A stretch of 64,000 bases of DNA from an uncultured Chloroflexia bacterium (GCA_963751585.1 CAVVVB010000010.1:1456-65455), one strand, 5' to 3'. Counted from the stretch's first letter, positions 10,008 to 50,289 are shown. The notes: generated by a model not told the origin, from the sequence alone. Program-made: numbers and translations.

Positions 10008-10010
10008 TTA

Positions 10011-13912: not shown

Positions 13913-13998
13913 ATAGGGCCACTTGAACCGTACACTTTGGACGGGTGGAACAAGCTCCTGATAGGTAGTAGACTGACTAACAGTGAAAGGAGCGATCT

Positions 13999-14403
13999 GT
14001 GTCCCAGGAAAACAAAGATAAAGCTGATGCTGCCGAAGCCAGAACCCAGCAAACCAGGGGCTTTATGCAGCAGGTTAGAGTAGCGTCCAGGCGGAAATAT
14101 ACTCCTGAGGAGAAAGTCCGTATCGTGCTGGAGGGGTTCCGTCGGGAAGTAACAGTCAATGAACTCTGTCGCCGGGAAGGCATCAAGCCAGGAGCCTACT
14201 ACGCCTGGACCAAGGACTTTATGGAGGCTGGGAAGGAGCGGCTAACACGGGATAGCGTCAGGGATGCTACGCGCCAGGAGATCGATGAGCTAAAACGGGA
14301 TAATGACGATCTCAAGCAGTTGGTGGCTGACCTTTCGCTGGATGTACATCGTCTCAAAAAAACGGCTATTCCTCCACTGGGCCAGAACGGCGACGGCGCA
14401 TGA
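13999..14403 (+). CDS. IS3-family transposase OrfA (HTH)
   Basis: Transposase_8-like HTH plus leucine-zipper region. Its stop overlaps the OrfB start (ATGA). Confidence 0.85.
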   Translation: MSQENKDKADAAEARTQQTRGFMQQVRVASRRKYTPEEKVRIVLEGFRREVTVNELCRREGIKPGAYYAWTKDFMEAGKERLTRDSVRDATRQEIDELKRDNDDLKQLVADLSLDVHRLKKTAIPPLGQNGDGA

Positions 14404-15359
14404 GTGCCGGGGACAAAGCTATTATCCTGGCCCAGGTAGAAAACCAGTCCAAGAGCAAACGGCAGGCGCTTATGGCACTGGGGATACCGAAAAGCAGCTA
14501 CTATCGGTGGCGCCAGGGGCGACCCGATTCGAGAAACCGGAGAAGAACGTGGAACCGGATTACTCCCGAAGAAGAAGACAAGATCCTGTCGGTAGCCCGG
14601 GAATCTCCTGATCTCAGCAGCCGGCAACTCTCAGCCTGGATCACCGATAATGAAGGCTTTGCCGTATCCGAGTCGACGGTGTACCGCATTCTAAGAAGGG
14701 AAGGGCTAGTGAAACGCCAGGCGACGCAGCTCACGGCCGCTAAGGAATACCACACTAAGACCACGCGGCCTCATCAGATGTGGGCTACCGACGCTTCCTA
14801 CTTCCGGGTGGTCAGCTGGGGCTACTATTACCTGGTGACCGTGATGGACGACTATTCCCGTTTCATCCTGGCCTGGAAACTACAGAAAGACATGTCGGCT
14901 AACTCCCTGATTGAGGTAGTTCAGGGAGCGGTGGATGCTACCGGCATGACCGATGTGCCTGTCGAGGATCGTACCAAACTCCTCTCGGATAACGGCGCTG
15001 GCTACGTCTCCAGGGCCTTCCATGATTACCTGCGTCTGGTGGGCATCGGGCATATCCTGGCGGCGCCCTTCCATCCCCAGACTAACGGCAAAGTGGAGCG
15101 CTATCAGCAGTCTCTAAAGCGAGAGGTGAACCAGCTACCCTATGAGATTCCCTCCCAGCTGGAACGGGCAATTGCTGCCTTCGTCGACTACTACAACTAC
15201 CGCCGTTATCACAAGGCTCTCGGCAACGTGACGCCGGCTGATGTCCTATATGGCAGGAGAGAGGGGATCCTAAAGCGCAGAAAGGAGGTGCAAATATCAA
15301 CAGTTAACCGTCGCAGAGACTACAACCAGGGCCTCAGGGAGCTTGTTAATGCCACCTGA
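14400..15359 (+). CDS. IS3-family transposase OrfB (rve integrase core, DDE)
   Basis: HQMWATDASYF...VMDDYSRFILAW...LSDNGAGYVS...HPQTNGKVERY carries the DD(35)E catalytic triad of the rve superfamily. Confidence 0.9.
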   Translation: MSAGDKAIILAQVENQSKSKRQALMALGIPKSSYYRWRQGRPDSRNRRRTWNRITPEEEDKILSVARESPDLSSRQLSAWITDNEGFAVSESTVYRILRREGLVKRQATQLTAAKEYHTKTTRPHQMWATDASYFRVVSWGYYYLVTVMDDYSRFILAWKLQKDMSANSLIEVVQGAVDATGMTDVPVEDRTKLLSDNGAGYVSRAFHDYLRLVGIGHILAAPFHPQTNGKVERYQQSLKREVNQLPYEIPSQLERAIAAFVDYYNYRRYHKALGNVTPADVLYGRREGILKRRKEVQISTVNRRRDYNQGLRELVNAT

Positions 15360-17266: not shown

Positions 17267-17852
17267 GTTAACACAAAAACACGAGTATTGAGTGCCAAAT
17301 GTTAACACACTGGCAAGGGAAAATCGGTTTTTCGAAAAGATAAGATGGCCAAGATAAAAACTGAGAACAATTTCCTTCTGCATAACTATGAGGAGGTGCT
17401 GGAGAATGAGCATCCGGCACGCTCACAAGGTCAGTTGCATCAAGAGCCCTCCTTTCAGGCTTATATGATGTTTACCCTTAACTTCGCCTATGCGCGACTC
17501 CAGGATGACTTCCAGGGAAATAGCGAGAGTAGGCCAGGCAAGCATAAAAAACTTGTTTTTGCGACCAAAGGAACTAATACTATGATTAAACATAGTATAA
17601 AAAAGCGTTGCCCAATAAAAGCGACCAAATTTGAGCTATAAAAATTCATTAAGAAACGAGAAATTATCACTGCCAATGATCTGTAAACCACTTTGGGTAT
17701 AAGCCACAAATTGCGAGGGCCAAGCGGCTTCCCTTGGAAAGCATTCCCTCAAGAACTGAGTAGAACGCCATGAAGCTAAGTTAACATTGGAGGCCGACGA
17801 TGACCGACGATGTTAACATCCACGTTCAAGGGGCATGAAAATTGGTGTTAAC
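17267..17852. repeat. Five copies of the palindromic motif TGTTAACAY in about 600 bp of low-coding DNA
   Basis: GTTAAC cores at 17267, 17301, 17780, 17812 and 17847, with extended consensus TGTTAACA(C/T); two copies extend to GTTAACATTGG. Confidence 0.6.
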
Positions 17853-18034
17853 ATTGGGCAATAAATTAGGTGTGTCCGTAATGATCGACTAGCGATGCGC
17901 GACGGTTTCAGTAAAAGATGAAAAGTGTAATGCCCGAAAAGATTTATTGTCGGAGCATTGACAGTCAAGACGTATGGTTATAGCATTAGGTGATACATGG
18001 ACTAGGCTAAAATTTAAGTCTGGGGAGGTGGGCT

Positions 18035-18274
18035 ATGGAGACAGTCAGGGACACAGAAAAAGTGAAAAGAATGTTCGCTCAAGGTCAGCCTGCGCTTGTG
18101 GACGCGCAGACTGGATATAAGTACACAATGGTTGCTCGTTGCCCGAAAGATGGTAACTTTGCCTCCGTGGCCAGAGTAGAGAGGGCCGGGCAATCCTTGA
18201 GCAGGGTGACATTTCAATGTACTTCATGCTTCACTGAGTTTGAGGTGGGTCAAGACGACATATATGTCCGCTAG
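18035..18274 (+). CDS. Hypothetical small zinc-ribbon-like protein
   Basis: A GGGAGGTGGG SD sits 6 nt upstream. Cys pairs CPKDG ... CTSC. Confidence 0.35.
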   Translation: METVRDTEKVKRMFAQGQPALVDAQTGYKYTMVARCPKDGNFASVARVERAGQSLSRVTFQCTSCFTEFEVGQDDIYVR

Positions 18275-18685
18275 ACATTCCTCATAATCGAGCACCAAAA
18301 TTAGGAATAACGCTGGCGTGCTTGGCTGGCATACAATCTGGCTTTTCGTTTAATAATATTCCTGCAGAGCTATTCTTATTATTTGATAGCTCTCATATTG
18401 CTGAATAGCTAGGCGTATGTCCTCACCCCGCTCCCGACGCCGATGGTAATCTGACAATTTCCGTTCGGATTCTGCGAGAAAAGCCTCATAGGAGTGCTCT
18501 AGGCAGGTTCATTTGATATTCATTTCACGTTCTCGACGCTCTTTAGCCCCAGCCAGAACTGCCCTTGTCTGGCTGGAGTTTGGCACGGGGTGTTCAGTCG
18601 TTCGCCACATCCTCGTCTTTACAGGCAATCTGGCAACAGTAGCGTCAATTGCAGATTGAAATATCTATAACAAAAGCCCTCACAT

Positions 18686-21299
18686 TCATTTACCTACAAT
18701 AAAAGATTTGATGCCTGGTCCGGCTGCCGGGTGATACGGCCTCTTGAATGCTTCAGGGTACTTTCTTCTTAATTCGTCCAGGTTAGCCCCCTCTACTTCA
18801 GCCAGGAAGCCACACGTAGCCATGCCTGCGGCATTTTTAGAAGTCACTTTATGCGGAACAATGGTGTTAATCGCGCCGCCTCGGTCGAGTTCTCCGGGAA
18901 CTATCGGGTCATATCTTGCCCCATGGTCTATCGATATTACCCCGGGCATTATTCTCTCCGTCACAAAGGCACCGCCGAGGACTGCCTCCTCTTTCGTTAT
19001 ATATTTTAACCACATCTCCATCTTCTATACCTCTCTTAGACGCATCCGCCGGATTGATCCAGACGGTGCGATACAGGTATCCGTCCGGGCCTTTGACTTT
19101 GCAGGTCTTGATTTCCCTAAACCAGGTTATATCATCATGGTTGGCATGGACTCCCCACCTGGGGTGATTGGAAACGACCAGTAGAGGATACTTCTTCGCC
19201 CTTGGGTGCAGCAGGCTTTCCTGGTGTGATTCGCCGTAGGGTATCCACTTGGGATAGGGTGGCCTCTCTTCATCATCAGGGAAGTGCTCGGCAAGCTTCT
19301 GTGAGTAGAACTCCAGCTTGCCAGTTGGGGTCGGCAGAGGATTTTTCTCGGGGTCATCGTGGAAGGCTCTCAAGCCGGGAGGGCTCTTCCTTCCATTCTG
19401 GGTCGGTTGGGAAGACGAAGTACCGGTTTTCCTTCCATTTCTTCATAGCTGATAAAACCCTTTACACCCGAAGTCTCAAAACCAATTTTTATCCATTCCT
19501 CAACGGTCTTACCCCTGCGTATTTCTCGAGCAGACCCAGCCTCTCAGCTATCATGCAGGCTATCTCATAGTCGCTCCTGGACTCCCCCAGGGGTTCGATG
19601 CATTTTCTTTCATCTATAAGAGTGTTGAATTGTCCACTGCCACCGTCGGCCGCTATATCATCTTCCTCAAATTTGGTATTGACGGGCAAGATAATATCGG
19701 CAAACAGACAATCATTTTCCATCCAAGGGTGCTGAGCCAACATGAATTCTATCTTCGGGCTTCTCACCGCCTCCACCAGCCTGTTGCCACCATTCCAGCA
19801 GGTTATCCAGCAGGGCGAATCGGTCCATATCATATGGATTTCAGAGCAACCCTCTGCAGGATACGTGTATTTCGTGAACTGGTTTTCACGTGGCGCCGCT
19901 AATAAAGTGGTACCGTACCAGCTGAGAGGTGGATTGAGAATGGCGTCAGCAATGAGAGTCTTGGGAAGAATTTGTTTTGGTAAGTTCTGAAAATTAAATC
20001 CATGATGCGCAGCCCCTACATCTGGAAATACCTTGGATCTAGGCAGAGCCATCTGATTGGGGTCGTTAAAAATAGCCCACTCAATCAGTTTGAGCTGGTT
20101 AGCTCCCGGTTTGCCCAATCCCTGCATCCCCAGCAGTATGATCTTCCATCCTGGCGGGTTCGGTTGAATATTGCCCCCTGATGTAGCCACCACCATTACC
20201 ATGTGCTATTGATGTTGCCTTGGATGCCCATTCTCTGGCCAGCGCTTTAATGACTCTTGACGGCACGCCGCATAGCTCCGCAGCCCATTTCGGCGTTTTA
20301 GGAATGCCATCCTCTTTGCCAAGTACATAGTCCCGGACTTTGTCAAAGCCAACCGTATGCGTAGCAACATACTCTTTATCATAGGTCCCTTCGGTAATCC
20401 AGACATAAGCTATAGCAAACTGTAAGGCAGCATCGGTATTAGGCAGTATCGGTATCCATTTATCAGCGTGAATTGCGGCCGAGTAATTCAAGTCTGGACA
20501 GATAAATATGGATTTTATTCCCAGCTCCGTGAACCAGTACATCAACCGGCTGGCTATCTGTCCGGACCATCCCCAACCTGTGGTTTCCGCGTCACATCCC
20601 CAGTACAGATAAGCTCGGTATTTTCGGCAATATCAGGGATCAAGATTACATTGGCGCCCTTGACCCACCGGTTCCTGCCCCCAGACATGTTTAGCGCCCC
20701 AGTACCAACCTTCCCAGCTATCCGGATTTCTGCATTGTTGGGTATATCCTCCTAAAAGTCTGAGAAGGTCTCTTTGAGCCCCATGGGGACCGTGCACACC
20801 TTTGGTCTCCCCATGTCCATCCGACTGGCAAAGTATCGCATATGGCCCGTATTTATTCTATTACCCTTTTTATCTCGCTCGCTATTATGTCTAGAGCTTC
20901 ATCCCAGGAGATTCGGACAAATCCACTCTTACCGCGATTCTCTACGTGTCTGTCGCCATTGGGGTCAAAATCGACTCTCTTCAGTGGATACAGGATTCTA
21001 TTTGAGGAGTAAACGCGCTTTTTATAGGCTAATGCGAGGGGGTCTATCAATGACTTCATACATGGTTCAAAGCTCTTGCCACGCGCCTCTATCTTCCAGG
21101 GCTTGAATTCTTCGGGCTTATACTTCCAATCATAATGCAGCGGCCTGATCCTGACTATTTTACCGTCCTTAACATCGACAACTATGGGCTTTCCTTCCAT
21201 GGCGTGAGCGCCAATAAAACTAAGCCCCTTTATGAATGTATTCTCTTCTCCGGATGACTTTCTAATGTTCTCTTTGTCGGCCATTTTACCTTTCCTCAT
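18686..21299 (-). pseudogene. Pyrogallol hydroxytransferase (TH) family molybdopterin oxidoreductase large subunit, heavily fragmented (at least 5 frameshifts and an in-frame stop)
   Basis: Collinear with the paralog at 28522-31135: VDVKDGKIVRIRPLHYD, NPDSWEGWYWG, ICPDLNYSAAIHADKW and a C-terminal molybdopterin-binding domain. The pieces are spread over ORFs 21299->20853, 20545->20099, 20202->19489, 19373->18909 and 19021->18686, with frame changes in between. Confidence 0.75.
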
Positions 21300-21731
21300 T
21301 TATCTTCATAGCCATGGGGATTGTTGAATAAAATGAGAATAAACTTTTTCCCCTAGTAATGTCAAGTGAGTATTGAATTCTCCACAAATATCCAACAATT
21401 ATCCTCCATTTCTGACAGTGGTGGTCAAATAGAGCAAGAACGATAAATTGCACTTTCTGACGATTTGTTTCGGCGTGTTGATTTTTCTGGGCATATTCTA
21501 CCCCCTTTTATTCATTTCAGTCTAACATTAAAGTTGGACTTATTTCTGGGGGCAGGTCACTGATTTTTAAAGGAAAGGTTATATTAAAAAGAGAAGGTGG
21601 GGTAAAACCCACCCACTCTAGGAGGAGGTAAGAGGAGGTAAATTGAAATTCGTATTCCTTACACGCGTTGAGGGTGTACTTACCTTCCTTCTCCTGATTA
21701 AGTAGACTTTTCCATTATCTACGTGCCTACC

Positions 21732-22181
21732 TCAAAACTTGTGATGAAGTAAGTTTTCCGGGACAGCTGCCATGTCGACCAGTTCGATCCAGACTCCTAG
21801 AGTCGACCTGGGTGGTAGCCAGGCCAGACGGAAGGGACGTTCGGGGGAAATCATCGCCGTTTCTTCTTCCGGCTTGAAGCCTTTTTCTTTCAACACCTGA
21901 ATTTTTCTATCAAAATCATCGATAAAAATGCAGAGGTGGAAAAGACCTCCCCCGCGCTCCTTGAGGAACCTGCCGAAACGGTTATTGGTACTGGTAGGCT
22001 GTACCAATTCAATAAAGATGTCCCCTAAGGGAAGTGATAGCAGGCGCACACCGTTTTGGGTGTCTTCTTTGACACCCAGGCTCCAGGGTTTGAGACCGAG
22101 CATTTTGCCGTACAGGCTCGCGGCTTCTTCGACATTTTTCACGACCACGCCGATATGGTCAAGCCTCTGGGCCATTTCCAT
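21732..22181 (-). CDS. VOC (glyoxalase/bleomycin-resistance/dioxygenase) family protein
   Basis: Two beta-alpha-beta-beta-beta modules. HIGVVVKNVEEAASLYGKMLGL resembles the VOC N-terminal module. Confidence 0.65.
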   Translation of the reverse strand: MEMAQRLDHIGVVVKNVEEAASLYGKMLGLKPWSLGVKEDTQNGVRLLSLPLGDIFIELVQPTSTNNRFGRFLKERGGGLFHLCIFIDDFDRKIQVLKEKGFKPEEETAMISPERPFRLAWLPPRSTLGVWIELVDMAAVPENLLHHKF

Positions 22182-22263
22182 TTACCCCTTTAGGGCGAAG
22201 CGCATCCTTGGCCAGCCGGTTTGCCTTGGCCAACCAAGAATGCGCTAAAGCCGTCTTCACAAA

Positions 22264-23569
22264 TTACTTGGATGAACCCGCGATAAATTGCTGCCAGTAA
22301 GAGGCCGCCTCGTCTAGGGTGATGGTGTGGAGAAAGACCGGCTGCCCACCGGAAATCTTCTTGGTGGCGTAGCCGACAATCGAGTCAACCGTCCGGTTAT
22401 TGCCCAGGTCCGGCCGGGCAATCATTACGGAGAGACCGAGCGGGCTCTCGAATTTCAGACCATTATCAATCACCGCGGCGACCTTGTCCGTATCCAGGCT
22501 ACCGGCCTGCTGCAGGGCGGTCATCAGACAGCTCCACTGGGCGATACCCTGAATCTCCGGGCCTTCCCACTTGCCGTATTGGGCTAACCAGGCAGCCTTG
22601 AAGTCCTTGGCCTGCTGAGTTAGCGCCGGGTCAAATTCGACAGGCCAGGCACCAGCCATCATCCCCTCCAGCGCCTCGGTGGGAATGAGCTGCGACAGGG
22701 TTCCCGCCGGCGAGGTGCTGCTGCAGAAGAACTGCCCCCGGTAGCCAGCCTGCCAGGCGGCCTTGATGGCCATGGCATCGGAGATGGGGCCCCCGCCTTT
22801 CGGCCTCGAAGACGTCCGGGTTCAGGGTTTTTACCTTGGTACCTATGGCACTCAGGTCGGTAGCGTTGGCCGGGTAGTATTCGGTGTCGGACTGCCGCCC
22901 GAAGGCTTGAATAGTTGCGGCTTCATGAGGGCCAATCTGGTGACCCAGGGCGTTATCCGGGCAGGCGATGACGAAGGTCTTTTTATCCGGGAAGTTCTTG
23001 ATAAACCATCCAATGAGCACCGGCCCCTGGCTGTTAATGAAGTAGGCCTCGAAAGTGTAATGGTTATCCTGGCTTAGCCCGGCCGAGGTCATGGTCGGGA
23101 TAAACAAATCCACCTTGTTAGATTCGGCTGCGGGAATCAAAGGGTCAGTAATCATGTCGTCACTGATGATGAATTTCACGTTATCCTGGTAAATCAGTTT
23201 GTTCTCGGCGGCGATGGCCGTCGTCTGGTCACCGTTGGAATCGTAGACGATAAAATCGATATTGTACTTATCCCCTCCGATAGATATACCGCCGCTTTTG
23301 TTTTCCATATCCTGCATGACCTGCAGCCCGTGCACCATGTCAAGCCCCATGGGCCATCCTAAAAAGGCGACAACACCTATTTTTAGTGTTTTTACGGCCG
23401 GTGTTGTCGGCGCTGCCGGTGTTGTCGGCGCTGCCGGTGCGGTAGTCTGTACCGCCGGAGTCGTGGTGGTGGTCATGGCCGGCGCATGGCAAGCAGATGC
23501 TAGCAGCGTGCCGATAAGCATGATGGCCACAATCAGTCCACCTAACATCGATAGTCTCCCCTTTTTCAT
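22264..23569 (-). CDS. Liv-type (HAAT family, PBP type I) ABC substrate-binding lipoprotein, one apparent frameshift near 22631-22773
   Basis: Signal peptide with lipobox LLASAC, a Thr/Pro/Ala linker (encoded by 21-bp tandem repeats around 23395-23445), then KTLKIGVVAFLGWP and a LivK-like fold. The C-terminal third lies on ORF 22773->22264. Confidence 0.7.
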
Positions 23570-23776
23570 CTTGTCCTCCTTTTTATTATGATTATGGTTA
23601 TTCCCCAGCCAAATAGCTAAATTCACCGGTACCTCCAATTAAAGTAGCTTTACTATTCCATTGAGTGGAATGACATTCCAATATATATGATTTATGTAGC
23701 GAGATTTTATCACACAAATGTTTGTTTGTCAATACCTCGCATTGACTCATAATAAAGGTTACCGAAAGAGGTATCG

Positions 23777-25021
23777 TTGCGTCAAAATTAGTGTTACCGA
23801 AGGAGGTGAAGGTGACACGACGCAGCATAATAGAATACGTGCAGGCACTACGGAGCCGATATTTTGGGGCATCAAGAGAAGAGAAGGGCAAGATGTTGGA
23901 TGAATTTACGAAAGTGACAGGCTGGCACCGCAAGGCGGCTATCAGGTTATTGAATCGGTCAAGCTATCCCAGGACGAGTAAAGGGCGCGGTCGGCCACGT
24001 AAATACGATTCAGAAGCCGCAGAAGCGTTGAAAGCGGTCTGGGAAGCTGGTGACCGGCTGTGCTCCAAACGCCTACAGCCGTTCATACCGGAGATGTTAA
24101 AGGTGCTCAGGCAGCATGGCGAGCAGCGGATCGATGTTGCTATGGAAAGGCTGCTCTGCCGGATGAGTCCGTCCACCATCGACCGGCTACTGCGAAAGTA
24201 TCGTAAGGTGGGAGGGCGAAGAGGACTTACTACCACCAGGACGGGGAGCCTGCTTAAAAGCCTCATACCCATCAGGACCTTTGCCGATTGGCAGGAGAAC
24301 AAGCCCGGGTTTCTGGAAGTTGACTTGGTCGCTCATTGCGGTGAGAGCAGCGAAGGTTTTTATCTGAACACGCTCTGCGCCGTAGACGTGGCCAGTGGCT
24401 GGACAGAATGTCGGCCGGTCTGGGGGAAAGGCCAGGAGCGTGTTGGTGGTGCTGTCCACAAGATACGGCAGCGCTTACCTTTTCCCCTTTTAGGACTGGA
24501 CTCAGACAATGGCAGTGAATTCATCAACCAGCATCTTTTTAGCTATTGCCAACGGGAGAAGGTTACCTTCACCCGCTCCCGTTCCTACAAGAAGAACGAT
24601 AGCTGCCATGTGGAACAGAAGAATGGGAATGTGGTGCGCCGTCTGGTGGGATATGACCGGTACACCTCCAGGGCGACATATCAATGCCTGGAAAGGCTTT
24701 ATGACGGTGTTCGGTTGTACGTGAACTTCTTTCAGCCTACGATGAAGCTGGTGGGTAAGACAAGACATGGCGCTAAAGTGAACAAGGTCTACGATACAGC
24801 ACGCACACCCTACCAGCGATTACTGGAAGCTGGTGTGCTTACTGAAGCTAAACAACCGGAACTGGCAGCCACCTATCACGGGTTAAACCCGGTGACACTC
24901 TTAAAGCAAATAAATAGCCACCTGGAACAGCTATGGCATCTGGCTGAGCGCCCCGCCAGTTTGGGTAACCGGAATTATGAGTCAATAAGGAGGGCTTCGG
25001 TAACAGTTTAATTTGACGCAA
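23777..25021 (+). mobile_element. Complete IS element with imperfect terminal inverted repeats of about 27 bp (left 23777-23803 TTGCGTCAAAATTAGTGTTACCGAAGG; right 24995-25021 CTTCGGTAACAGTTTAATTTGACGCAA)
   Basis: The inverted repeats were read directly, about 25/28 matching. They enclose a single DDE transposase gene. Confidence 0.7.
23791..25011 (+). CDS. DDE transposase (rve integrase-core family; IS481-like or ISNCY-like)
   Basis: N-terminal HTH, catalytic LEVDLVAHCG...LGLDSDNGSEFIN...HVEQKNGNVVRR (D, D, E). An alternative GTG start at 23811 follows AGGAGG. Confidence 0.8.
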   Translation: MLPKEVKVTRRSIIEYVQALRSRYFGASREEKGKMLDEFTKVTGWHRKAAIRLLNRSSYPRTSKGRGRPRKYDSEAAEALKAVWEAGDRLCSKRLQPFIPEMLKVLRQHGEQRIDVAMERLLCRMSPSTIDRLLRKYRKVGGRRGLTTTRTGSLLKSLIPIRTFADWQENKPGFLEVDLVAHCGESSEGFYLNTLCAVDVASGWTECRPVWGKGQERVGGAVHKIRQRLPFPLLGLDSDNGSEFINQHLFSYCQREKVTFTRSRSYKKNDSCHVEQKNGNVVRRLVGYDRYTSRATYQCLERLYDGVRLYVNFFQPTMKLVGKTRHGAKVNKVYDTARTPYQRLLEAGVLTEAKQPELAATYHGLNPVTLLKQINSHLEQLWHLAERPASLGNRNYESIRRASVTV

Positions 25022-25180
25022 TACGTACCTGTAACGGAGATAATGCACTATCTATCTACGCCGATTTTATTAGGTGCTTAATAAGTAGTATAATCTCCTT
25101 ACTTAGTAGGCTGTTCTGTCGGTGATAAGCGCCCTTTCTTAAATTGAAAAATATTTGATAATCATGAGAGAAGGAGGTAT

Positions 25181-26035
25181 ATGCATAATCTAAAAGGCAA
25201 GGTAGCTTTGGTTACTGGAGCGGGCTCCAAGGTTGGCATAGGACATGCTATCGCACTTCGTTTAGCCAAGGACGGAAGCGATGTAGCGGTGAGCGATATT
25301 TCCCTCCGCGGCATTCATAATAATGAATATATCGGTACGGATGACTGGCATGGCCTGGAGGATGTTGGAAGTGAGATAAGAGCCCTGGGAAGAAAAGCTC
25401 TGGTTATTGAGGCGGACATTGGTTCAAACCAACAGGTGCGAGGGATGGTCGCTAAATGTATCGATTTTGGGGGTAAGATCGACATCTTGGTGAATTGTGC
25501 TGCCTTATCAGGGCCGAGGGGTATACCGCCGTTTGAGATTCCTGATAAGGAATGGCGTCGGGTACTGGATGTTAATATCTTTGGCACATATCGGTGCTGT
25601 AAGGCAGTGGGTAGCTACATGATAGAAAGGGGGGCCGGAGGTAAAATAATCAACATTGCTTCGGAGGGGGCGAGAGGTCGGGTAATGCCAGGTCACGGAC
25701 CTTATATTGTATCCAAGTTTGGGATAATAGGGCTGACTCAAGTGTTGGCTGTAGAGTTGGCGAGGTATAAGATAAATGTTAACGCCGTCTGCCCTGGTTT
25801 GACCGCTACCCAGATGGTAGTAATGCCGCCCTCAGAAGGTAACGTTAGCACCGCTGGCTTGAGCTTGTCAGAAGCGGTGACTAAGGTCTATGCCGATTTA
25901 TTACCCCAGATACCTTTAGGCCGTATTGGACAGCCGGAAGATGTCGCCAATGTCGTGGCCTTTTTGGCCTCTAGTGACGCTGATTATATGACCGGTCAAT
26001 CCATAAATGTTACCGGAGGGCATAATATGTCTTAG
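25181..26035 (+). CDS. SDR family NAD(P)-dependent oxidoreductase
   Basis: KVALVTGAGSKVGIG Rossmann motif and the SDR catalytic YxxxK (YIVSK). Confidence 0.85.
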   Translation: MHNLKGKVALVTGAGSKVGIGHAIALRLAKDGSDVAVSDISLRGIHNNEYIGTDDWHGLEDVGSEIRALGRKALVIEADIGSNQQVRGMVAKCIDFGGKIDILVNCAALSGPRGIPPFEIPDKEWRRVLDVNIFGTYRCCKAVGSYMIERGAGGKIINIASEGARGRVMPGHGPYIVSKFGIIGLTQVLAVELARYKINVNAVCPGLTATQMVVMPPSEGNVSTAGLSLSEAVTKVYADLLPQIPLGRIGQPEDVANVVAFLASSDADYMTGQSINVTGGHNMS

Positions 26036-26489
26036 GTATCCTTTTGGCTGATGCTAATGATAATAACCAGCCCGGCAGCCAGGATGACAAAAACTAGCCC
26101 CATCGCCAATCCGCCAAATGTTAATTGCCCAAATAACAAGACTACCTCCTAACAAGGAAGTGATGTCCCTGGTTTTATACTTCTTGAAATTCCGTTCTGG
26201 CCATAATGTCATTCTGGAACTCGGCTTTTTTAAAAGAATCACTGAATACCCACCAGTAAGTGGTGTTATTCAGTGACGTTTCTTATAAAAGCTGCGCTCT
26301 TGTGAATACCTCCCCTAGCTTCTCCTTTATGGGCAGACATCAAACTTAATTCCTGCCCATAATGTTATCCACACTTCAATTATTATAATTTCTTCACGCA
26401 GGTTACAACATTTACCTATAGCTAATTGTCTGACTTCTAGGAAAGCACAAAACCATCGCTAACGAATAGTATCTATCAGTTTTTATTAC

Positions 26490-27785
26490 TTACTTCCAGC
26501 CGTAAAATGTCTTGTTGTATCCGAGCGCCTCATCCAAGGATATTTTGGCAATGATGCTAGCCTTTCCTCCCACCATTTGTTTGATGGCTAGGGAGCCAAG
26601 TGTGTCCACAGTTCTGGTAATTCCCAGATCCGGCCGACTAATCATGATGCTGGGAGAACAGCACGGGCTATCATATTGCAAACCATTGGCAAGCACATTT
26701 GCAACTTTGTCCACATCCAGGCTCCCAGCTTTTTGTAAGGCGGCTATCAGGACATACCAGGCATTCAGTTGCGTGATGTCAGGATCATCCCACTTCCCAT
26801 TTTTAGCTATGTAGGCATCCTTGAAATCTTTAGCAGCGCCGACTGGAGGCGTATCCATTTCTACATCATTCGCGGCAACAATCATCCCCTCCGTGACCTC
26901 TGGCAGAACTGTCTGGTCATAGACAGACGCACCTACCGTACCAGTCATAAAGAATTGTCCCTTCCAACCAGCCTGCGATACGGCTTTGATGATAAGGGGA
27001 TCCGTTACCGGTCCGCCGGCAGTAGGTATGAAAGCATCTGGATTCAAAGTCTTGACCTTGGTACCGACAGCACTAAGATCAGTCGCCGATGGTGGATAAT
27101 ATATTTCATCAAGCATCTTCGGTCCAAAAGCTTCCGACAATTTTTTCAACTGATCACCAAAAGCATGACCAGGCTGGCTATCGGGAGCTGCAAGCACGAT
27201 AGTCTTGATATTCGGGTGATTCTTCACAAACCATCCCCATGCTGTAGGGCTGTTCGTATAGGCCGCGACTGTTCCTTGAAAGGTGTATTTATAATCCGGG
27301 TTAAATATAGTCCCGGTAGCATCTAGACCGATTGCTATTACATGTTCGGGGTCGGTAAGGGAAGCCCAGTAGGCGATAGTATCGTCGCCGACGATGAATT
27401 TCACTTTGTCTACATCCATGAGTCTTGACGCGGCAGAGCGTGATGCCACCTGATCAAATTTGGAGTCGTATATGACTGGCTGGATAGTATATTTCTCCCC
27501 CCCGATATCCAGCCCGCCCTTTGCGTTAATCATATCCGCCTGGAGTTGCACCCCTTTTTCAAACTCAATGCCTAGCGGCCACCCCAAAAAGGCAATGACA
27601 CCTATTTTTAAAGTTTTTGGTGCGGGGGTTGTGGTCTGAGTTACGGGAGCCGTGGTTTGAGTCACGGGAGCCGTGGTTTGAGTTGTGGGCGTTGCGGCTT
27701 TTTGGCATGACACCATAAAAGTCATGCTCAATAGTATTATTGATAGAACCGCCAAACTAATCTCTAGTAGTTTCTTTCTTTTCAT
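26490..27785 (-). CDS. Liv-type ABC substrate-binding lipoprotein
   Basis: Signal peptide plus Cys (MVSCQ), Thr/Pro/Gln linker encoded by 21-bp tandem repeats (around 27636-27700), KTLKIGVIAFLGWP, LivK-like fold. Confidence 0.85.
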   Translation of the reverse strand: MKRKKLLEISLAVLSIILLSMTFMVSCQKAATPTTQTTAPVTQTTAPVTQTTTPAPKTLKIGVIAFLGWPLGIEFEKGVQLQADMINAKGGLDIGGEKYTIQPVIYDSKFDQVASRSAASRLMDVDKVKFIVGDDTIAYWASLTDPEHVIAIGLDATGTIFNPDYKYTFQGTVAAYTNSPTAWGWFVKNHPNIKTIVLAAPDSQPGHAFGDQLKKLSEAFGPKMLDEIYYPPSATDLSAVGTKVKTLNPDAFIPTAGGPVTDPLIIKAVSQAGWKGQFFMTGTVGASVYDQTVLPEVTEGMIVAANDVEMDTPPVGAAKDFKDAYIAKNGKWDDPDITQLNAWYVLIAALQKAGSLDVDKVANVLANGLQYDSPCCSPSIMISRPDLGITRTVDTLGSLAIKQMVGGKASIIAKISLDEALGYNKTFYGWK

Positions 27786-27979
27786 TTTGCCTCTCCTAAT
27801 ATTTTAATTCATATTGTTTAAAAAAATTTATGCAATATATCTACCTCCTTTATATTCCACTTAGCGGAATAGCATTCCACAAAATCTTAAATTTAGAGGA
27901 ATCATATCATAAGGATGTTTATTTGTCAATATTCCATGAAATGGGTCCTGTTCTGTTCACTTGAATTTACATATTCTGG

Positions 27980-28260
27980 AGCTTCCATTACCGCCTTCTG
28001 TTACACCAAGCCAGCTTGTATATCTAAAGCTGGCTTCAGCAACTTTCCCAGGCGTTTTACCGTTCAAGCTCTCATGCGGTTTAAATAAGTTATAGTAGAT
28101 TAACCAGCTAATGTCGCACTCCCAAACTTTGTGATAGGTGTAAATGATAAGATAGAAGAATTAAATCTTAAACAGGGGACTCAAATAGCTAGTTATCGAG
28201 AGGATCTTTATAATGCGGCAGGCCAGTTATTATTAAAATATATTAAATGATTTACAACTC
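27980..28260 (-). pseudogene. Transposase remnant (rve C-terminal fragment)
   Basis: The reverse strand encodes YNLFKPHESLNGKTPGKVAEA, matching the conserved rve C-terminus (RPH.sL...TP). No intact upstream part is present. Confidence 0.45.
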
Positions 28261-28521
28261 GGACGTCAAAGCTGGTGGCAGGCTGATGAATTAACCGATG
28301 AATGGTTCCCGCATCCACCAAAGTTGTGCGCGATTAGGACTCTTTATTTCACTCTATAGCCTTTTAATCTGCCATCTTTAAAGCATATAATTGCACTGGT
28401 ATCACGCCGGGGCGTGGGTTATCGAATCACTTTTTATGGTGAACTTTTACCCTTTTTCCTCTGGCTCTTTGTCATTAAACTTACTATATAAAAACCCTTA
28501 CCATTTTGGAGTTCAGTTTAT

Positions 28522-31135
28522 CTACATACCTCCTTCAACCCAGGCATTAAAGTGAAGTCCGGAAGCTGGGTCATACTCCTTTTCGAATGCCTCAGGGTAT
28601 TGTCTTTTCCACTCTTCCATCTGGGCCATGGTGACCTTTTCAACCTCAACTAAAAATCCACTGGTAACCTGCCCTCCGCAGTTTTTAGAGACTAGACCGG
28701 CTGGAGATATCAGATTATTGGCGCCGCCCCGGTCAAGCTCCCCCGGGATTATCCAGTCACATCTGGCCCCGTGGTCCTGCGAGACCGCTCCGGGCATAAT
28801 TCTCTCCGTGACATAGGCACCGCCGAGGACGGCCCCCCTCTCGTTGTAGATCTTAACGATATCGCCGCTCTTGATGCCTCTCTTTTCCGCATCTTTCGGG
28901 TTAATCCAGATAGGCTCGTACATGTAGCCATCCCAACCCTTAACCTTGCATGTGGGGATTTCCCTTGTCCATGATATATCATCGCACTGGGCATGCATTC
29001 TCCACCTCGGATGGTTAGAGACAATGAGCAAAGGGTACTTCCTGGCTCTTTCTCCGGAAGGTCTTTCGTCATGGGTCTCACCTTTTTCAATCCAGTGCGG
29101 CAGCGGGGGTCTCTCCTTATCATCAGGGAAATATTTGGCCAGTCTCTCCGAATAGAACTCCAGCTTACCGGAGGGTGTGGGCAGAGGGTTGTTCTCGGGG
29201 TCTTTATAGAACTTGAGCATGCCGGCTGGGTTTTTATTCCCAATCCGGGGAGGTTGGGTAGACGTAATATCCCTTTTCGTTAAAGTCTTCCCAGCTGATC
29301 AATTCCGGCAACCTCATCTCCTCAAAGCAATATTTAATCCATTCTTCTACGGTCTTGCCCTGCGTAACCTCATCATACTTGCCTAGCTTTTTGGCTATCT
29401 CCAGGACTATTTCGTAATCACTCTTGGACTCGCCGATGGGCTTGATGGCCTGCTTCTGGAGCGTTATGCTAGAAATATCTATGCCAGCGATATGGTTTGG
29501 CACAATATCGTCTACCTCAAACGTGGTATTCGCCGGCAGGATGATATCCGCGAGCAGACAATCGTTCTCCAGCCACGGGTGCTGGGCGACAATACATTCT
29601 ATCTTGGGGCTTCTGAAGGCTTCTATCGTTTTATTGCCGGCATTCCAGCAGGTAGTCCGGCAGGGGGCATCGCTCCATATCATGTGTATTTCCGTGCCGC
29701 CTTCTTCTTTGGGTAGGGGATAGGTATATTTTACGAACTGGTCTTCAACTCCCGCCGCAACAGCGCCGCTACCATAAAAAGTGAGGGGTGGGTTAAGAAT
29801 GGCCTCCTGGACGAGGGTCTTAGGAATGAATTGTTTTGATGACCTCGTGTGAGCAGAGGCGTGAGGCCTGCGTAGGCGGTCACCTGGCTTGGTTGACGAG
29901 AATGCACTGAGTAAGGCACGGGCGGACCTTGGCGCGGTATCCTTAATTTCGGACATTATTATGGCCTGGTGGACTCCCGGTTTTCCCAGTCCTTGCATAC
30001 CCAGCAAGATACATTCCAATCTAGCGGGTGAATGCGAATACGTTCCCCGGATCATCGAACCGCCGATGATATGGGCTATCGACGTTGCTCTGGCGGCAAA
30101 TTCTCTAGCCAGCGCCTTGATTGTCCATTCCGGAACACCACACTTCGGCGAAGCCCACTCGGGTGTCTTGGGAATACCGTCTTCCCTGCCCAGAACGTAG
30201 TTCTCAAATTTATCGTAGCCGACAGTGTGCGTCGCCACATAATCCTTATCGTAGGTGCCTTCGGTCACCCAAGTATAAGCTATAGCGAGTTGCAGCGCTG
30301 CATCCGTGTTGGGTAGTACCGGGACCCATTTGTCGGCATGGATAGCTGCTCCATAGTTCAAATCGGGGCAAATATATATCTGCTTTATCCCCACTTCGGA
30401 CCAGAAATAGCATAATCGGGTGGCAGATTGCCCGGCAAGCCCCCAAGGTGTTGTTTCTGGATCGCATGACCAGAACAGGACCTGCTCGGAGTTCTCGGTT
30501 ATGTCCTTGATCACATTATCCATTGGCTTCATCATACCGACCCATCCCGTCCCCCACACATGCATTGACCCCCAATACCACCCCTCCCAACTATCGGGAT
30601 TTCTCTGCTGCTGCGTGAAACCACCCAGCGTGTCATGAAGCAGAATTTGACAGCCATGAGGAGCATGGATAATCTTGTCCTCCCCATGTCCATCCGCCTG
30701 CGCCAGAACCGCATACGGTCCATATTTTTCATGCACCCTCTTCAGTTCACTGGCAACTATCCCGGCAGCCTCGTCCCACGAGATTCTCTGATACTTGCTC
30801 TTCCCCCTGTTCTCCGGGTGTCTCTCGCCGTTAGGGTCCCAGTCAACTCTCTTTAAGGGGTACTTAATCCGGTTGGGAGAATAGACTCGCTTTTTGTAGG
30901 CTAGTGAGAAAGGCCCCGGAAGCGATTTCATGACGGGCTCAAAAGTTTTACCATTCCTCTGAAGTTTCCATGGGTTTATTTCCTCCCTGGTATATTTCGA
31001 GTCATAGTGTAACGGTCTAATTCTGATTATTTTTCCATCTTTAATATCAACCGCTGACGGAACGCCGCCTGCAGTGTAACCAGCCAGGCCAAGCGCTCTA
31101 AATACTGTTTTTTCTTTACCTTTTTCGTCTGGCAT
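28522..31135 (-). CDS. Pyrogallol hydroxytransferase (TH) family molybdopterin oxidoreductase large subunit; one frameshift in an A-rich run (AATAAAAACCC) near 29220-29234
   Basis: VDIKDGKIIRIRPLHYD, IKYPLKRVDWDPNGERHPENRG and NPDSWEGWYWGSMHVWGTGW correspond to hallmark blocks of Pelobacter acidigallici transhydroxylase alpha subunit (VKDGKIIRMTPMDFDD, NPDSWEGWHWGGMHMWGFSW). Combined length about 865 aa against about 875. No N-terminal Fe-S Cys motif, as in the TH alpha subunit. Confidence 0.8.
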
Positions 31136-31326: not shown

Positions 31327-33232
31327 TTATAAACTCGAGTCGTCTAAACCAAGGGCAGCCAATGTCTCAGAGCGGGGCAATCCGGTCTCTTCATCCCATC
31401 CCCGGAGGCGGTAATACTCCTTCAACATGCTCTTGAATTTATCCCGGTCGAGCATATTACCAATATAGGAGACCGCCTCGTCATTAGGACCAGGCACGGT
31501 GGTCACGTTAGACTCGTGCGTGGCCCGCAAGGGTTCGGTGAAGTTGATCTCAAGGGGGTAGTCAGCTTCGGGGACTACCCGTCCCTCCCGCAGTAGGATA
31601 AGTCTTTGCAGGTTGTAAATACGTTCGGCATACCGGTCAAGCACTTCGCCGGCAATGCCGGTAACCGCGGTAAAGAGCTTGGCGCCGAGGTCGGGGTCCC
31701 CCACATGGTCCGGCGTATTGAAGGAAAAGGTAATGGGGTAGCCGAAATCACACAGACCTAGGCTTTCTTTGAGATAGGTCCTGTTCAGTATTTTTTTCGC
31801 CGCCAGCGCCTTCCCCTCATAGCTGGTAAAATCTCCGGCCGCCTCACCGCCCCAGAAAGCCCTGGCAATATCATGTACCACCTTAGTTGTCACCGGCGTG
31901 CTGCCGGGACGGAGTTGATTCAGTACCCAGGCAGCATAGACAAAGACAATCTCGTGCAGGTAGTTATGATGCACCCTGGGTTCCATAGGGTAGAGCAGCG
32001 CATTGACGAAGAATGCCCGGGGCGGGTTGAAGTCATTCGCCATGATTGGTGCCAGATAACGGGGGAACAGGGCCCGGGCTTTAGCCGATACCCTGTCGCC
32101 AATCCTCACCAGTCCCTCGGCCAGGATATCACCAAACCCCTCACGATAGGCTATCGCATGAATCAGCTCTTTCAGGAATTCTCCGGTGCCGATCTTAGCT
32201 AGCGGCAGGCCAGTCTCCTTTTCGGCAAGAACTCCCGACCGATAGCACTTGTGAAGCCAGTCAATAATGGCCATGAGCTCCCATGTATCTACGGAGTAAT
32301 CGTCAGCCAAGACTGGCGCATCGAAGAATGTCTCTATCGGCTCATCCTCCCGGCCGAAATTCCATGGCCGGTAATAGTCCAAGGACTGGCACTTGCGGAG
32401 GCCTTCCAGCCGCTGGTCATATCGATATACCCCCCTGACGCACTCCATCCCGCAAAGATAGCAGCCACCCTTGCTGATACGCTCCACGGTATGGCCAGGG
32501 GCATAGCCAGGCAATATTCTGAAGTTAGGCAACGACGGATTGGTACCCTTGCTTATCCGGATGGTATTGCGGTTAAGCTCCTTGAGAGCGTCCGGGGTCG
32601 GCTACGGAGATTTTCCCGGTACCCATGATGGCGATGGCTTTTAGATTTTTGGAACCCATGACCGCCCCGAAGCCGGCCGTAAGAGTGCAACCGTGGGAGG
32701 CCAGGGCTATAGCTGTCCTGACCCTTCTTTCGCCGGCCACGCCGGTGGTGATAAAACGCGTCTTTTCACCATGGGTCTGCTGGAGCACCTCTCCCGTCCG
32801 GTAAGCGTTCTGTCCCCACAGCGATGAGGCATCCCGGAGTTCGGCCTCGCCATCGTGAATCCACAGATATACGGGTTTGGGTGCACGTCCCCCAACAATA
32901 ATACCGTCAAACCCTGCCTTCTTCAGCTCCGCGCCGACAAATCCGGCGAAACTACCGTAACAGTAGCCCTCAGGGAGGGCCATCGGGGACTTGCCGACCA
33001 CCGATAACTGTGTCGCCGCTTGGGCTCCAGTTCCCACCAGCGGCCCGGCCATGAAGATAAGCCGGTTCTCCGGGTCAAAAGCCTTGGTCTCCGGTTTTAC
33101 CGTCTCCCAGTAGAGTTTCGTGCCGATGCCACGTCCGCCAAGGAACTTCTCGGCGTATGGTTGTGTTGCGATTTGGGTTATGGCGGCACTACTCAGATTT
33201 ACATGCAGTATCTTACCTACCCAGCCATACAT
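31327..33232 (-). CDS. Aldehyde:ferredoxin oxidoreductase (tungsten AOR family), one apparent frameshift near 32532-32573
   Basis: The N-terminal domain MYGWVGKILHVNLS...FLGGRGIGTKLYWE (ORF 33232->32573) and the catalytic and Fe-S part with CYLCGMEC (ORF 32532->31327) are collinear with the intact paralog at 42828-44702. Confidence 0.8.
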
Positions 33233-33625: not shown

Positions 33626-34897
33626 ATGAGGCGTCTTTCAATAGCCATATTACTGGCAATAGTCTTGGTAATTTCACTTGTTGTTTCCTGTACTTCAGGG
33701 AAAACATCAACCCCTACCCCTGTCCCAACCCAAACTCAGACCCAAACCCAGACATCTGCTCCGGCAGCCGCTAAGACTTTGAAAATTGGTCTCATTACCA
33801 ACTTAGAATCGCCACTCGACCTCCCCTTTGCACAGGGGTCGCAAGCCATGGCGGATCTAATTAATAAGAACGGCGGCATGGTTATCGGTGGGGACACCTA
33901 TAACATCCAACTGATTGTGTATGACTCGAAGGGCGATGGGGCAACAGCAAAAACCGCCGCACAAAGACTTATTTCCGAAGACAATGTAAAGTTCATACTT
34001 GGTGATGAGACGGCGGATTCCTGGATTCCCCTTACCGAAGCCAGCAAGGTAATCAACATTAACTGCGACGTCACCAACAATATCTTTGACACAAAGAACC
34101 ATTACACCTTCCAGGGAAATGTCGCTAATACGGAAGCGGCGGAACTATGGGGATGGTTTACCCAGAATTATCCGAATCTGAAGACCATGGTCAGTGCCTA
34201 TCCGGATAACGAGATTGGTCACTCCTACGGCGGTCTCGTCAAGAAATCAGCGGCAGCCTTTGGCCTAAATCTGATTGATGAAGAATACTACCCGCCAACG
34301 ACTACCGACTTCAGCAGCCTGGGTGCCAAGGTAAAGAACCTGAACCCGGACTGCTTCCTCGCTCAATACGGGGGTCCGATATCGGATAGTAACGCCTTCA
34401 AAGCTGCCTACGAGGCCGGCTGGAAGGGGCAACAGTTTGCTTCCTCGACGCTACCGACAGATGTTCTAGTGTCCATCGTTCCACCGGAGGCAGTAGAAGG
34501 CATGGTTTGTCTGGCTTGGGCCGATGAAATAGAGCCGCTTGCCGGGGCCGCCAAGGTATTCGTGGATGCCTATACCGCCAAATCCGGGAAATGGGATTGG
34601 CCCGAACTTGTACAATTGAACTCCTGGTACGTTCTTATGGGGGCATTAACACAGGCTAACAGCCTCGATACGGACAAAGTGGCGTCCGTGCTTGCCAGCG
34701 GCATGAAGTACGAGAGCCCCTGTTTTGTTGGCCAAGGCGAGATGGTCAGCCGGCCGGACCTGGGGAATTCACGCACTGTTGATAATATGGGCGGTCTGGC
34801 CATCAAGAAAATAGTGGGTGGTAAGACCCAGATAGTTCATGTCATCAGCCTGGATGAAGCGTACTCCTATAACCAGAAATTCTGGGGCTGGAAATAA
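33626..34897 (+). CDS. Liv-type ABC substrate-binding lipoprotein
   Basis: Lipobox LVVSCTSG, a (TQ)n/Pro linker, KTLKIGLITN, LivK-like fold. Confidence 0.85.
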   Translation: MRRLSIAILLAIVLVISLVVSCTSGKTSTPTPVPTQTQTQTQTSAPAAAKTLKIGLITNLESPLDLPFAQGSQAMADLINKNGGMVIGGDTYNIQLIVYDSKGDGATAKTAAQRLISEDNVKFILGDETADSWIPLTEASKVININCDVTNNIFDTKNHYTFQGNVANTEAAELWGWFTQNYPNLKTMVSAYPDNEIGHSYGGLVKKSAAAFGLNLIDEEYYPPTTTDFSSLGAKVKNLNPDCFLAQYGGPISDSNAFKAAYEAGWKGQQFASSTLPTDVLVSIVPPEAVEGMVCLAWADEIEPLAGAAKVFVDAYTAKSGKWDWPELVQLNSWYVLMGALTQANSLDTDKVASVLASGMKYESPCFVGQGEMVSRPDLGNSRTVDNMGGLAIKKIVGGKTQIVHVISLDEAYSYNQKFWGWK

Positions 34898-35003
34898 AGG
34901 ATAATGTAACCACGTCTGTTTACTGGCAGTAGCGGTCCGTTCTTTATCGGGAAGACACCGCTACTGCCGGTAATTCCACAGCAGAAAAGGCATAGTAACG
35001 TCG

Positions 35004-35879
35004 ATGAGTTTATTTGGCCAGTTAGCCTTTAACGGCTTGGTTATGGGTTTAATTTACGTCATTTTAGCCGCTGGTCTCGTCCTAATCATGAACGTTTCCA
35101 GGATATTCCTTATTGCCTACGGCCAGTTCTATATGATAGGCGGCTATATTGTCTGGGCCGGAGTGACTTTATGGCATCTCCCGTTCTTTATTGCTCTAGT
35201 GATAGCCGTACTAGCTACCGCCATATTGGGACTGCTGAGCTACCGTTTAATCTTCCAGTACGTCCAGTTTGCGAAGAATCAATTTCTGGTAGTTATCGCA
35301 GCTGCCATAGGCCTCATGATGCTTCTCGCCCAGGCTGGATTGATAGTTTTTGGTTCGACGGCACGGGGAGTCCCACCTATAGTCCCGGGCATAACCAGCT
35401 TCGCCGGTATTAGTTTCCCCAATGCCAAACTGGTACTTATCGTGCTAGCCCTTGCCATCACCTTGGCTCTGTTCTGGGTCTATGAGAAGACAAATCTCGG
35501 GCGTGTCATGCGTGCTGTTGCCTTTCTACCGGATGCCGCTTCTCTGCAGGGAATCAATACCCAAAAAATATATTTTATAACCCTGGGAATCGGCAGCGCT
35601 CTTGCCGGCGTCGCCGGGGCGATTATGGCACCAAGCTATTCTCTTAGCCCTGATATGGGCACCAATATCTTTTTGCCGGTGATGTTACTCATGATGTTAG
35701 GAGGGATGGATAGCCTGCTCGGGACAATCCCCAGCGGGCTAGTAGTGGGCTTGACTTTAAGCTTCGGCCAATATTTTATGCATTCTAGCGCGCAGATAAT
35801 TCTTTATTCCGTTATCGGCATCATCATCTTCTTCCGGCCCAACGGGTTGCTCGGGCGCGGCATGAAACTGGGGATATAA
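35004..35879 (+). CDS. HAAT-family ABC permease (LivH-like)
   Basis: About 8 TM helices and LivH-like conserved blocks. Confidence 0.85.
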   Translation: MSLFGQLAFNGLVMGLIYVILAAGLVLIMNVSRIFLIAYGQFYMIGGYIVWAGVTLWHLPFFIALVIAVLATAILGLLSYRLIFQYVQFAKNQFLVVIAAAIGLMMLLAQAGLIVFGSTARGVPPIVPGITSFAGISFPNAKLVLIVLALAITLALFWVYEKTNLGRVMRAVAFLPDAASLQGINTQKIYFITLGIGSALAGVAGAIMAPSYSLSPDMGTNIFLPVMLLMMLGGMDSLLGTIPSGLVVGLTLSFGQYFMHSSAQIILYSVIGIIIFFRPNGLLGRGMKLGI

Positions 35880-37684: not shown

Positions 37685-37693
37685 GAAACACAG

Positions 37694-38407: not shown

Positions 38408-38475
38408 ACAGCAAAACAGTCACTTTTTCCTCGATATCCGGAATTTAATAGCAGGGTATAAGGAGTAGTGAACAA

Positions 38476-39231: not shown

Positions 39232-39309
39232 GGGATTCATTGATTTTAATATCATTTCGAACCAGAGGGATGAAAAATAATAGCATGGAAAACAAAAGGA
39301 GGTCGGTCA

Positions 39310-39995: not shown

Positions 39996-40050
39996 GCTGA
40001 TCTCCATGAAGTTAAATAGCGATGCCGCAGATTCGAATCTGAAAAGGACA

Positions 40051-42030: not shown

Positions 42031-42073
42031 ACAAAAGACATTTTAAGGGAGGCGCTCTAAAATAGATAACAGA

Positions 42074-42820: not shown

Positions 42821-42827
42821 CACGGCC

Positions 42828-44702: not shown

Positions 44703-44778
44703 AATAGATTCAATATATGAACCCGTATCATAAAAATTTGACGCTAGCGTGACATCACTTCCTTGTTAGGAGGTAGTC

Positions 44779-45654: not shown

Positions 45655-45656
45655 AA

Positions 45657-47434: not shown

Positions 47435-47443
47435 AAATTAGCC

Positions 47444-50283: not shown

Positions 50284-50289
50284 CATCAG

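Follow-up and report, generated by a model that had tools for sequence, protein, structure and literature searches.

What two large-subunit genes of a molybdenum enzyme do in a genome where both are interrupted by single-base frameshifts, and where no working small-subunit gene follows either of them, is the question raised by a stretch of 64,000 nucleotides from an uncultured Chloroflexia bacterium (GCA_963751585.1 CAVVVB010000010.1:1456-65455). This whole stretch is referred to below as the window, and the two genes as copy A and copy B (Table 1). Both resemble AthL, the large (alpha) subunit of the pyrogallol-phloroglucinol transhydroxylase (TH) of Pelobacter acidigallici, whose Fe-S small (beta) subunit is BthL. 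Our best explanation, to which we assign as a whole a probability of roughly 0.5, is that copies A and B are distantly related paralogues in a large environmental clade that is sister to pyrogallol-phloroglucinol transhydroxylase and resorcinol hydroxylase, and that their frameshifts (eight in copy A, one in copy B) are most probably consensus indel errors of the assembly.

Among solved structures, the best match of copy B is 4v4c_A, a pyrogallol hydroxytransferase large subunit (E 3e-136, 459 bits), which places it closer to AthL than to other characterised MopB enzymes. Dimethyl sulfoxide (DMSO) reductase comes next with 283 bits, a value that the trimethylamine N-oxide (TMAO) reductases do not exceed, and acetylene hydratase and the formate dehydrogenases lie far behind (E>=1e-17). 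Corrected copy B carries, above the Pfam cut-offs, PF21423 (AhtL-like_1st), PF00384 (Molybdopterin) and PF01568 (Molydop_binding), and the homologues of copy A have the same three domains. This is the domain order of Pelobacter AthL and the large-subunit architecture of the TH/RhL branch, in which the AhtL-like first domain replaces the Fe-S domain. The next-best structural and HMM relatives, the DMSO/TMAO reductases DorA/TorA and BisC, are likewise Ser-ligated and devoid of an Fe-S domain, but they lack the AhtL-like first domain and stay far below their NCBIfam cut-offs; no NCBIfam model reached its cut-off on copy B.

The hallmark motifs named in a first-pass annotation of the window were recovered, VDIKDGKIIRIRPLHYD and DWDPNGERHPENRG in copy B and NPDSWEGWYWG in both copies, and its observation that the N-terminal Cys Fe-S motif is missing is borne out: neither copy has a CxxCxxxC there, copy B is free of Cys before residue 162, and copy A has a single Cys in its first 150 residues. 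No twin-arginine signal was seen on inspection by eye. With Ser at the ligand position and AthL as the best structure, nothing pointed to another DMSO-reductase clade with a Cys or Sec ligand to molybdenum, and the assignment of both genes to the alpha-subunit type of the TH branch, made in the same annotation, is right at the level of the clade according to structure matches, Pfam matches and the tree described below. On sequence grounds, both genes belong to the Ser-ligated TH/resorcinol-hydroxylase branch of MopB in the DMSO-reductase superfamily, called the RhL/PgtL family in a survey of the superfamily (Wells et al. 2023, PMC10100899).

TH enzymes had been described as rare, which turned out to be wrong: matches at E<=1e-3 exceeded 5,500 protein clusters in one search and 7,400 in another, among the 8,000 candidates scored in each. 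In species-representative genomes, relatives are found in metagenome-assembled genomes (MAGs) of Dehalococcoidales/Dehalococcoidia, often in several copies per genome, as well as in Desulfatiglans and other Desulfobacterota, Moorellaceae and Syntrophomonadaceae. Judged by its nearest homologues, the contig most likely belongs to a Chloroflexota genome of the Dehalococcoidia type. In a distance tree of 72 sequences, built by neighbour joining with AthL as its one characterised reference, the 71 environmental sequences (copies A and B and 69 homologues) form a single clade, and a long branch lies between this clade and AthL. Copies A and B, which are 62% identical to each other and are the only TH copies in the window, fall into different subclades. 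Both genes are members of a known, widespread and biochemically uncharacterised environmental clade. AthL-like genes of this kind have been reported since 2013, in multiple copies per genome, from the sediment Chloroflexi and Dehalococcoidia RBG-2, RBG-1351 and DEH-C11 (PMC3971608, PMC4959651), and proteins of RBG_16_60_22 are among our homologue matches; those reports describe large-plus-small-subunit operons, whereas stand-alone alphas, pocket residues and frameshifted copies are not addressed in them.

Copy B reads from 31135 to 28522 as an open reading frame (ORF) of 633 codons that ends in a TAA at 29236-29234, followed by 238 codons in the +1 frame and a stop at 28522. Intact homologues read PDWE-K-x-PAG across this junction, without an extra base, so that one inserted T accounts for the lesion. 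The corrected protein can be aligned end to end with the intact 871-aa homologues P0001, P0005 and P0121 at 82-85% identity. The one indel in an A-run noted at first pass was thus confirmed as the T at 29236, and it is the only lesion in the gene; a hidden compensated frameshift in the Ser/Arg-rich middle (residues ~395-440) was rejected, as homologues carry the same segment. In copy A, frameshift-aware protein-to-DNA alignment located shifts at ~20855, 20644, 20609, 20143, 19514, 19441, 19389 and 18983, six of them +1 (one extra base) and two -1 (one missing base). Once the frame is restored no in-frame stop is left, and the product (864 aa) is 85% identical to the intact protein P0123. Of the minimum of five frame changes and the stop described at first pass for this copy, the frame changes stand, at eight, and the stop is a by-product of a shift.

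Directly past the stop of copy A, the minus strand encodes MNVRAFVIDISICN, a stop, RYCCQIACKDEDVAND, a second stop, and TPRAKLQPDKG/QFWLGLK. This segment matches residues 1 to ~50 of the 270-aa beta subunits (MKxFVIDxSICNGCYCCQIACKDEH...) that follow many homologues, and the gene from which it derives had its N-terminal ferredoxin motif in common with BthL. It has suffered two TGA stops (one a plain TGG->TGA change), one -1 frameshift, a Cys-to-Arg exchange at a conserved Cys of the cluster motif and a change of KDEH to KDED; six of 25 near-invariant positions, the two stops included, are altered. Beyond codon ~50-55, frameshift-aware alignment of intact beta proteins to 17300-18720 gave noise only, the small ORFs at 17.0-18.6 kb had no Pfam match, and tblastn detected no further beta homology in the window, including after copy B. 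Within the window, an adjacent three-[4Fe-4S] small subunit (BthL) is thus represented by a decayed stub at locus A and is absent from locus B. That no small-subunit gene lies nearby, as had been noted, holds for copy B, which shows no trace of one, but not for copy A. The stub reads as truly decayed, and is the only demonstrated relic at these loci.

The frameshifts of the alpha genes can be read in two ways, and consensus error comes out slightly ahead of real, very recent inactivation. The latter is a substantial, if minority, possibility: both genes would be genuine pseudogenes, alpha A having lost its function after truncation of the beta gene and gained eight real indels, and copy B, the aldehyde:ferredoxin oxidoreductase (AFOR) gene upstream of it and the other split genes of the window would be recent single-hit pseudogenes in a genome decaying under the action of insertion sequences (IS). 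Several observations weigh in this direction and against consensus error. Copy A has ~3 frameshifts/kb against ~0.13/kb in the rest of the window, a ~24-fold difference (Poisson P(>=8 | 0.34 expected) ~1e-9), and the 17.4 kb between 33.6 and 51 kb show no visible frameshift. Uniform error cannot explain such clustering, and the artefact reading therefore needs a local drop in read support. Locus A is also a natural setting for a pseudogene, in an IS-rich region beside a truly dead beta gene, and the window carries three transposase genes, an integrase, a transposase remnant and a truncated permease stub. Finally, exact-pattern scans of metagenome contigs for the copy B site, with 0 or 1 extra base, found no independent contig. 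A scan of genome contigs gave no near-identical locus (best 82%).

The nature of the lesions argues for the opposite reading. All nine are 1-nt indels, seven of them insertions, and none is a nonsense codon. Family-invariant residues are changed at 0 of 124 positions in copy A and at 1 of 125 in copy B, as compared to 0 to 3 in intact homologues, and the branch of copy A in the tree is no longer than those of its sisters. Ratios of indels to substitutions in mutation-accumulation studies range from 1:3 to 1:10, at which eight real indels should have been accompanied by ~2-8 hits on invariant residues and 1-4 stops. The neighbouring beta stub, damaged by substitutions and stops in a proportion of roughly 6-7 substitutions to one indel, is an example of real decay at this very locus, and alpha A is unlike it: the contrast between 6/25 altered conserved positions with one indel in the stub and 0/124 in copy A is very unlikely to arise by chance.

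The insertions themselves point the same way. Across the window we counted 13 +1 versus 3 -1 events, and at four or more of the nine +1 sites checked the inserted base differs from both of its neighbours; such an insertion bias and non-templated bases are not known to be common in spontaneous bacterial mutation. At the first site of copy A and at the site of copy B, moreover, the event is one and the same, and an odd one: gaa[T]aaa. Genes unrelated to the alphas are split by +1 shifts as well, namely those for the AFOR (~32599), a substrate-binding protein (~22807), an acyltransferase and a glycosyltransferase, each with one shift, and that for an ABC ATPase, with two. These five neighbours show no other visible damage, and the pattern looks like an assembly-wide signature of insertion errors.

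A comparable picture is found elsewhere. The homologue loci of one MAG, MFD02809.bin.2.211, which to judge by its contig names was probably assembled from long reads, have the same frameshift-only, insertion-rich pattern (nine shifts in L077, two in L061, one or two in L062). The TH-like gene of L077 (4699-7326) combines its nine frameshifts with zero stops, and lies between intact upstream genes and fragmented downstream genes, which suggests that in such assemblies consensus errors can be locally clustered, as in copy A. A single shift is also present in L058, which lies on a 4.1-Mb contig from a different MAG. Apart from these, the relatives of copy B are uninterrupted, 28 loci by frameshift-aware alignment and the remaining full-length genes as single open reading frames; paired shifts at ~7160-7320 in several intact homologue loci were alignment artefacts in a variable segment, and these genes read as single frames. 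If the frameshifts are consensus errors, the organism itself probably has intact versions of both alpha genes. The first-pass description of the pair as one decayed and one near-intact gene is therefore doubtful: frameshifts are indeed present in both copies, but there is no substitution damage and unrelated neighbours are hit as well.

We next consider the beta subunit outside the window. Three of the four closest intact relatives of copy B have no adjacent beta gene (L001, 84%; L083/L084, 82%; L085, 83%), and the fourth, L002, is uninformative, as its locus ends 133 bp past the gene. The neighbours of these beta-less relatives are AFOR, SDR, OYE-type reductase and TRAP or MFS transporter genes; in L085, the genes upstream of the alpha gene are an AFOR and, after it, an SDR and three more. 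The missing beta gene at locus B thus appears to be a trait of the lineage. Over the 69 homologue genes, a beta gene is adjacent in 26, lies within 7 kb in 7 and is absent in 27, and in 9 the locus ends before this could be judged; whole clades are without it. In the clade of copy A, L081 has the arrangement alpha-alpha-beta and L080 has an alpha alone, and in L050, L054 and L055 the beta gene adjoins the alpha closest to copy A.

The two copies differ in descent. Copy A comes from a lineage with alpha(-alpha)-beta operons, its beta gene having been cut to a 50-codon stub that later decayed by substitutions. The copy B lineage consists of stand-alone alphas without an adjacent beta, whose neighbours are genes for AFOR, SDR, OYE-type reductase and transporters. 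Under either interpretation of the frameshifts, we infer that alpha A remained under purifying selection long after the adjacent beta gene died. Tandem arrays of TH-like alphas are common in the relatives (alpha-alpha in L054; alpha-beta-alpha in L012 and L061), and the alpha-alpha-beta order of L081 (2302-7755) raises the possibility that one beta gene serves two different alphas.

A more tentative idea is that TH-like molybdenum large subunits are able to function in the absence of a cognate Fe-S partner, as a beta-independent and probably redox-neutral subclass with a predicted hydroxyl-transfer or hydratase-like activity on phenolic substrates. We regard this as conceivable rather than probable. 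It would draw on the copy B lineage, on several other Dehalococcoidia clades of stand-alone alphas and on the rebuilt pocket described below, and locus A may be the transition caught in the act, with an alpha conserved next to a long-dead beta. For stand-alone alphas, a net redox-neutral reaction seems more plausible than a net oxidation, because the latter would need an electron outlet. In this respect copy B differs from resorcinol hydroxylase (RhL/RhS) of Azoarcus anaerobius, the one other enzyme characterised in the Ser-ligated, phenol-hydroxylating branch (PMC10100899). RhL performs a net oxidation with an electron route via its small subunit; none is encoded beside a stand-alone gene of the copy B type. 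As described, RhL shows that the branch acts on phenols beyond pyrogallol.

Two of the beta-less clades have small ORFs of their own downstream of alpha. In a Dehalococcoidales clade (L042, L044, L045, L047, L048, L049), a conserved Cys-free ORF of 104-107 aa with the motif MAEQ...QPQxITSPDxKLQTLHH lies just downstream, and may encode a different small partner protein. In a second clade (L033, L034, L040, L052, L060) the downstream ORF has ~190 aa, starts with MILIIGITGASGxIYGIRLLEVLS and resembles by eye a flavin prenyltransferase of the UbiX type; this hints at a connection with the (de)carboxylation of phenolic acids by enzymes of the UbiD type.

The residues around the active site address what the alphas might act upon. 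His144, His154, Asp174, Ser175 (within NPDSWEGW), Trp176 and Arg359 of AthL are invariant in the alignment of all 71 environmental sequences; we take Ser175 to be the Mo ligand, and His144/Asp174 the acid/base pair, of the Pelobacter enzyme. Tyr152, Arg153, Trp354, Tyr404 and Tyr560 are presumably the pocket residues of AthL for pyrogallol/tetrahydroxybenzene. Tyr152, Arg153 and Tyr404 are replaced in 71/71 sequences (by G, P and L in copy A, and by A, P and A in copy B), and Trp354 and Tyr560 lie in AthL-only insertions that correspond to gaps in both copies. The roles of these residues reportedly go back to Messerschmidt et al. 2004.

Each alpha is predicted to be a cytoplasmic molybdenum enzyme with a bis-molybdopterin guanine dinucleotide (bis-MGD) cofactor and no Fe-S cluster of its own, in which Ser175 would bind the metal. 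With the His144/Asp174 pair kept and the surrounding pocket rebuilt, the chemistry would have been retained and the substrate changed, and the likely reaction is a hydroxyl transfer or a hydroxylation whose phenolic substrate ring is not that of pyrogallol. Since the five presumed pocket residues are absent in 71/71 sequences, the substrate of the clade is probably not pyrogallol.

By the same comparison, it is improbable that the two genes are, or formerly were, true pyrogallol-phloroglucinol transhydroxylases that feed a phloroglucinol pathway with the nearby SDRs as phloroglucinol reductases. AthL is indeed the best solved-structure match, the catalytic Ser, Asp and His are retained, and Chloroflexi homologues were annotated as pyrogallol hydroxytransferase in the earlier genome papers (PMC3971608, PMC4959651). 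However, copies A and B are only 38-40% identical to AthL and sit across a long branch from it, the pocket residues are lost clade-wide, no functional beta gene exists in the window, and the neighbours (AFOR, OYE-type reductases, IclR, SnoaL-like) are not known phloroglucinol-pathway genes. The SDRs, proposed at first pass to be possibly phloroglucinol-reductase-like, offer no support either: all three in the window match generic SDR families and structures only, without a phloroglucinol reductase among the top matches, and this assignment was rejected. As judged from these comparisons, neither copy is an orthologue of the pyrogallol enzyme of Pelobacter.

Lastly, a programmed +1 ribosomal frameshift (recoding) at GAA-T-AAA in copy B and at the matching first site of copy A, suggested by their common heptamer context gaa[T]aaa, was rejected as effectively refuted, given that intact homologues (82-85% identity) read through without the extra base, that on GAA-U a slip of tRNA-Glu into the +1 frame should leave it unable to re-pair, and that the other shifts lie in unrelated contexts and in unrelated genes.

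The surroundings of the two genes are summarized in Table 1. The AFOR gene next to copy B has its Pfam domains AFOR_N and AFOR_C on two ORFs, with one frameshift relative to the intact paralogue at 42828-44702, and is likely an operon partner of copy B. Farther on, 33626-51060 (plus strand) holds two parallel catabolic modules without visible frameshift, each with a four-gene Liv-type ABC transporter, an OYE/FadH-type Fe-S flavoenzyme and an SDR. The flavoenzymes (688 and 667 aa) have BaiCD, bilirubin reductase and mycofactocin-OYE as best NCBIfam matches, all far below cut-off; an IclR regulator, a SnoaL_4 protein and the intact AFOR lie in the same segment. Taken together, AFOR, OYE-type Fe-S flavoenzymes, SDRs, IclR, the SnoaL-like protein and Liv-type and TRAP transporters would fit an aromatic/alicyclic acid catabolic island, for which we name no pathway.

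Table 1. Coordinates of the TH-like genes and other features of the window
Feature	Position	Strand	Remarks
Copy A, TH-like large-subunit gene	18686..21299	minus	864 codons when corrected; 8 single-base frameshifts
BthL-like Fe-S beta-subunit 5' stub	18535..18683 (18683->~18535)	minus	~50 codons; tblastn E down to 7e-13, 65-71% identity
Copy B, TH-like (AthL-like) molybdopterin large-subunit gene	28522..31135	minus	871 codons after removal of one extra base
Copy B lesion, inserted T at 29236 in A-run (gaa[T]aaaaa)	29234..29236	minus	in-frame TAA and +1 shift
AFOR gene, +1-split	31327..33232	minus	directly upstream of copy B; +1 insertion at ~32599
Short ORF with likeness to rve-type transposase C-terminus at residues 18-37 (~28050-28109)	27960..28160	minus	downstream of copy B; rve_3, E 1.8e-4
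GT4 glycosyltransferase gene, +1-split	4100-5833	minus	
ABC ATPase gene, +1-split	9237-11017	minus	two shifts
Peripla_BP_6 binding-protein gene, +1-split	22264-23638	minus	
PlsC-like acyltransferase gene, +1-split	52593-53940	plus	
Mobile-element genes	12527-15359, 23791-25011, 60839-61965		IS110-family transposase, two rve-type transposases (second a weak match), phage-type integrase

The TH-like loci sit in an IS-rich stretch. The transposase remnant described beside copy B has a weak counterpart, the C-terminal end of rve_3 at 28.05-28.11 kb, below the Pfam gathering score. No Moco riboswitch or other RNA element was found near either gene, the sole Rfam match in the window being a tRNA gene (61893-61965, minus strand) that the 3' end of the phage-type integrase gene overlaps. 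A 125-nt inverted repeat (arms 26043-26167 and 44751-44875, 95% complementary) is not favoured as a structured RNA (fold z-score -1.1). Its first arm looks like what is left of the 5' end (start region) of a gene for a LivH-like permease, near-identical to the start of the gene at 44779, and this stub lies downstream of the binding-protein gene 26490-27785, in what is probably a truncated third transporter operon. At 57600-58700 (plus) and 58232-59155 (minus), low-complexity repeats rich in Ala, Ser, Arg, Leu and Pro give overlapping ORFs on both strands.

For the family as a whole, the label "pyrogallol hydroxytransferase" that members of this clade receive automatically, and the claims of polyphenol degradation derived from it, are probably over-specific, because the presumed AthL pocket residues are conserved nowhere in the clade. 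A conserved alpha beside a dead beta, together with clades of stand-alone alphas, suggests that the Fe-S subunit is dispensable in part of the family, which is relevant to a long-standing question, the function of the beta subunit in a reaction that is redox-neutral overall. If this is true, a beta-independent subclass would be abundant in anoxic sediments and peat.

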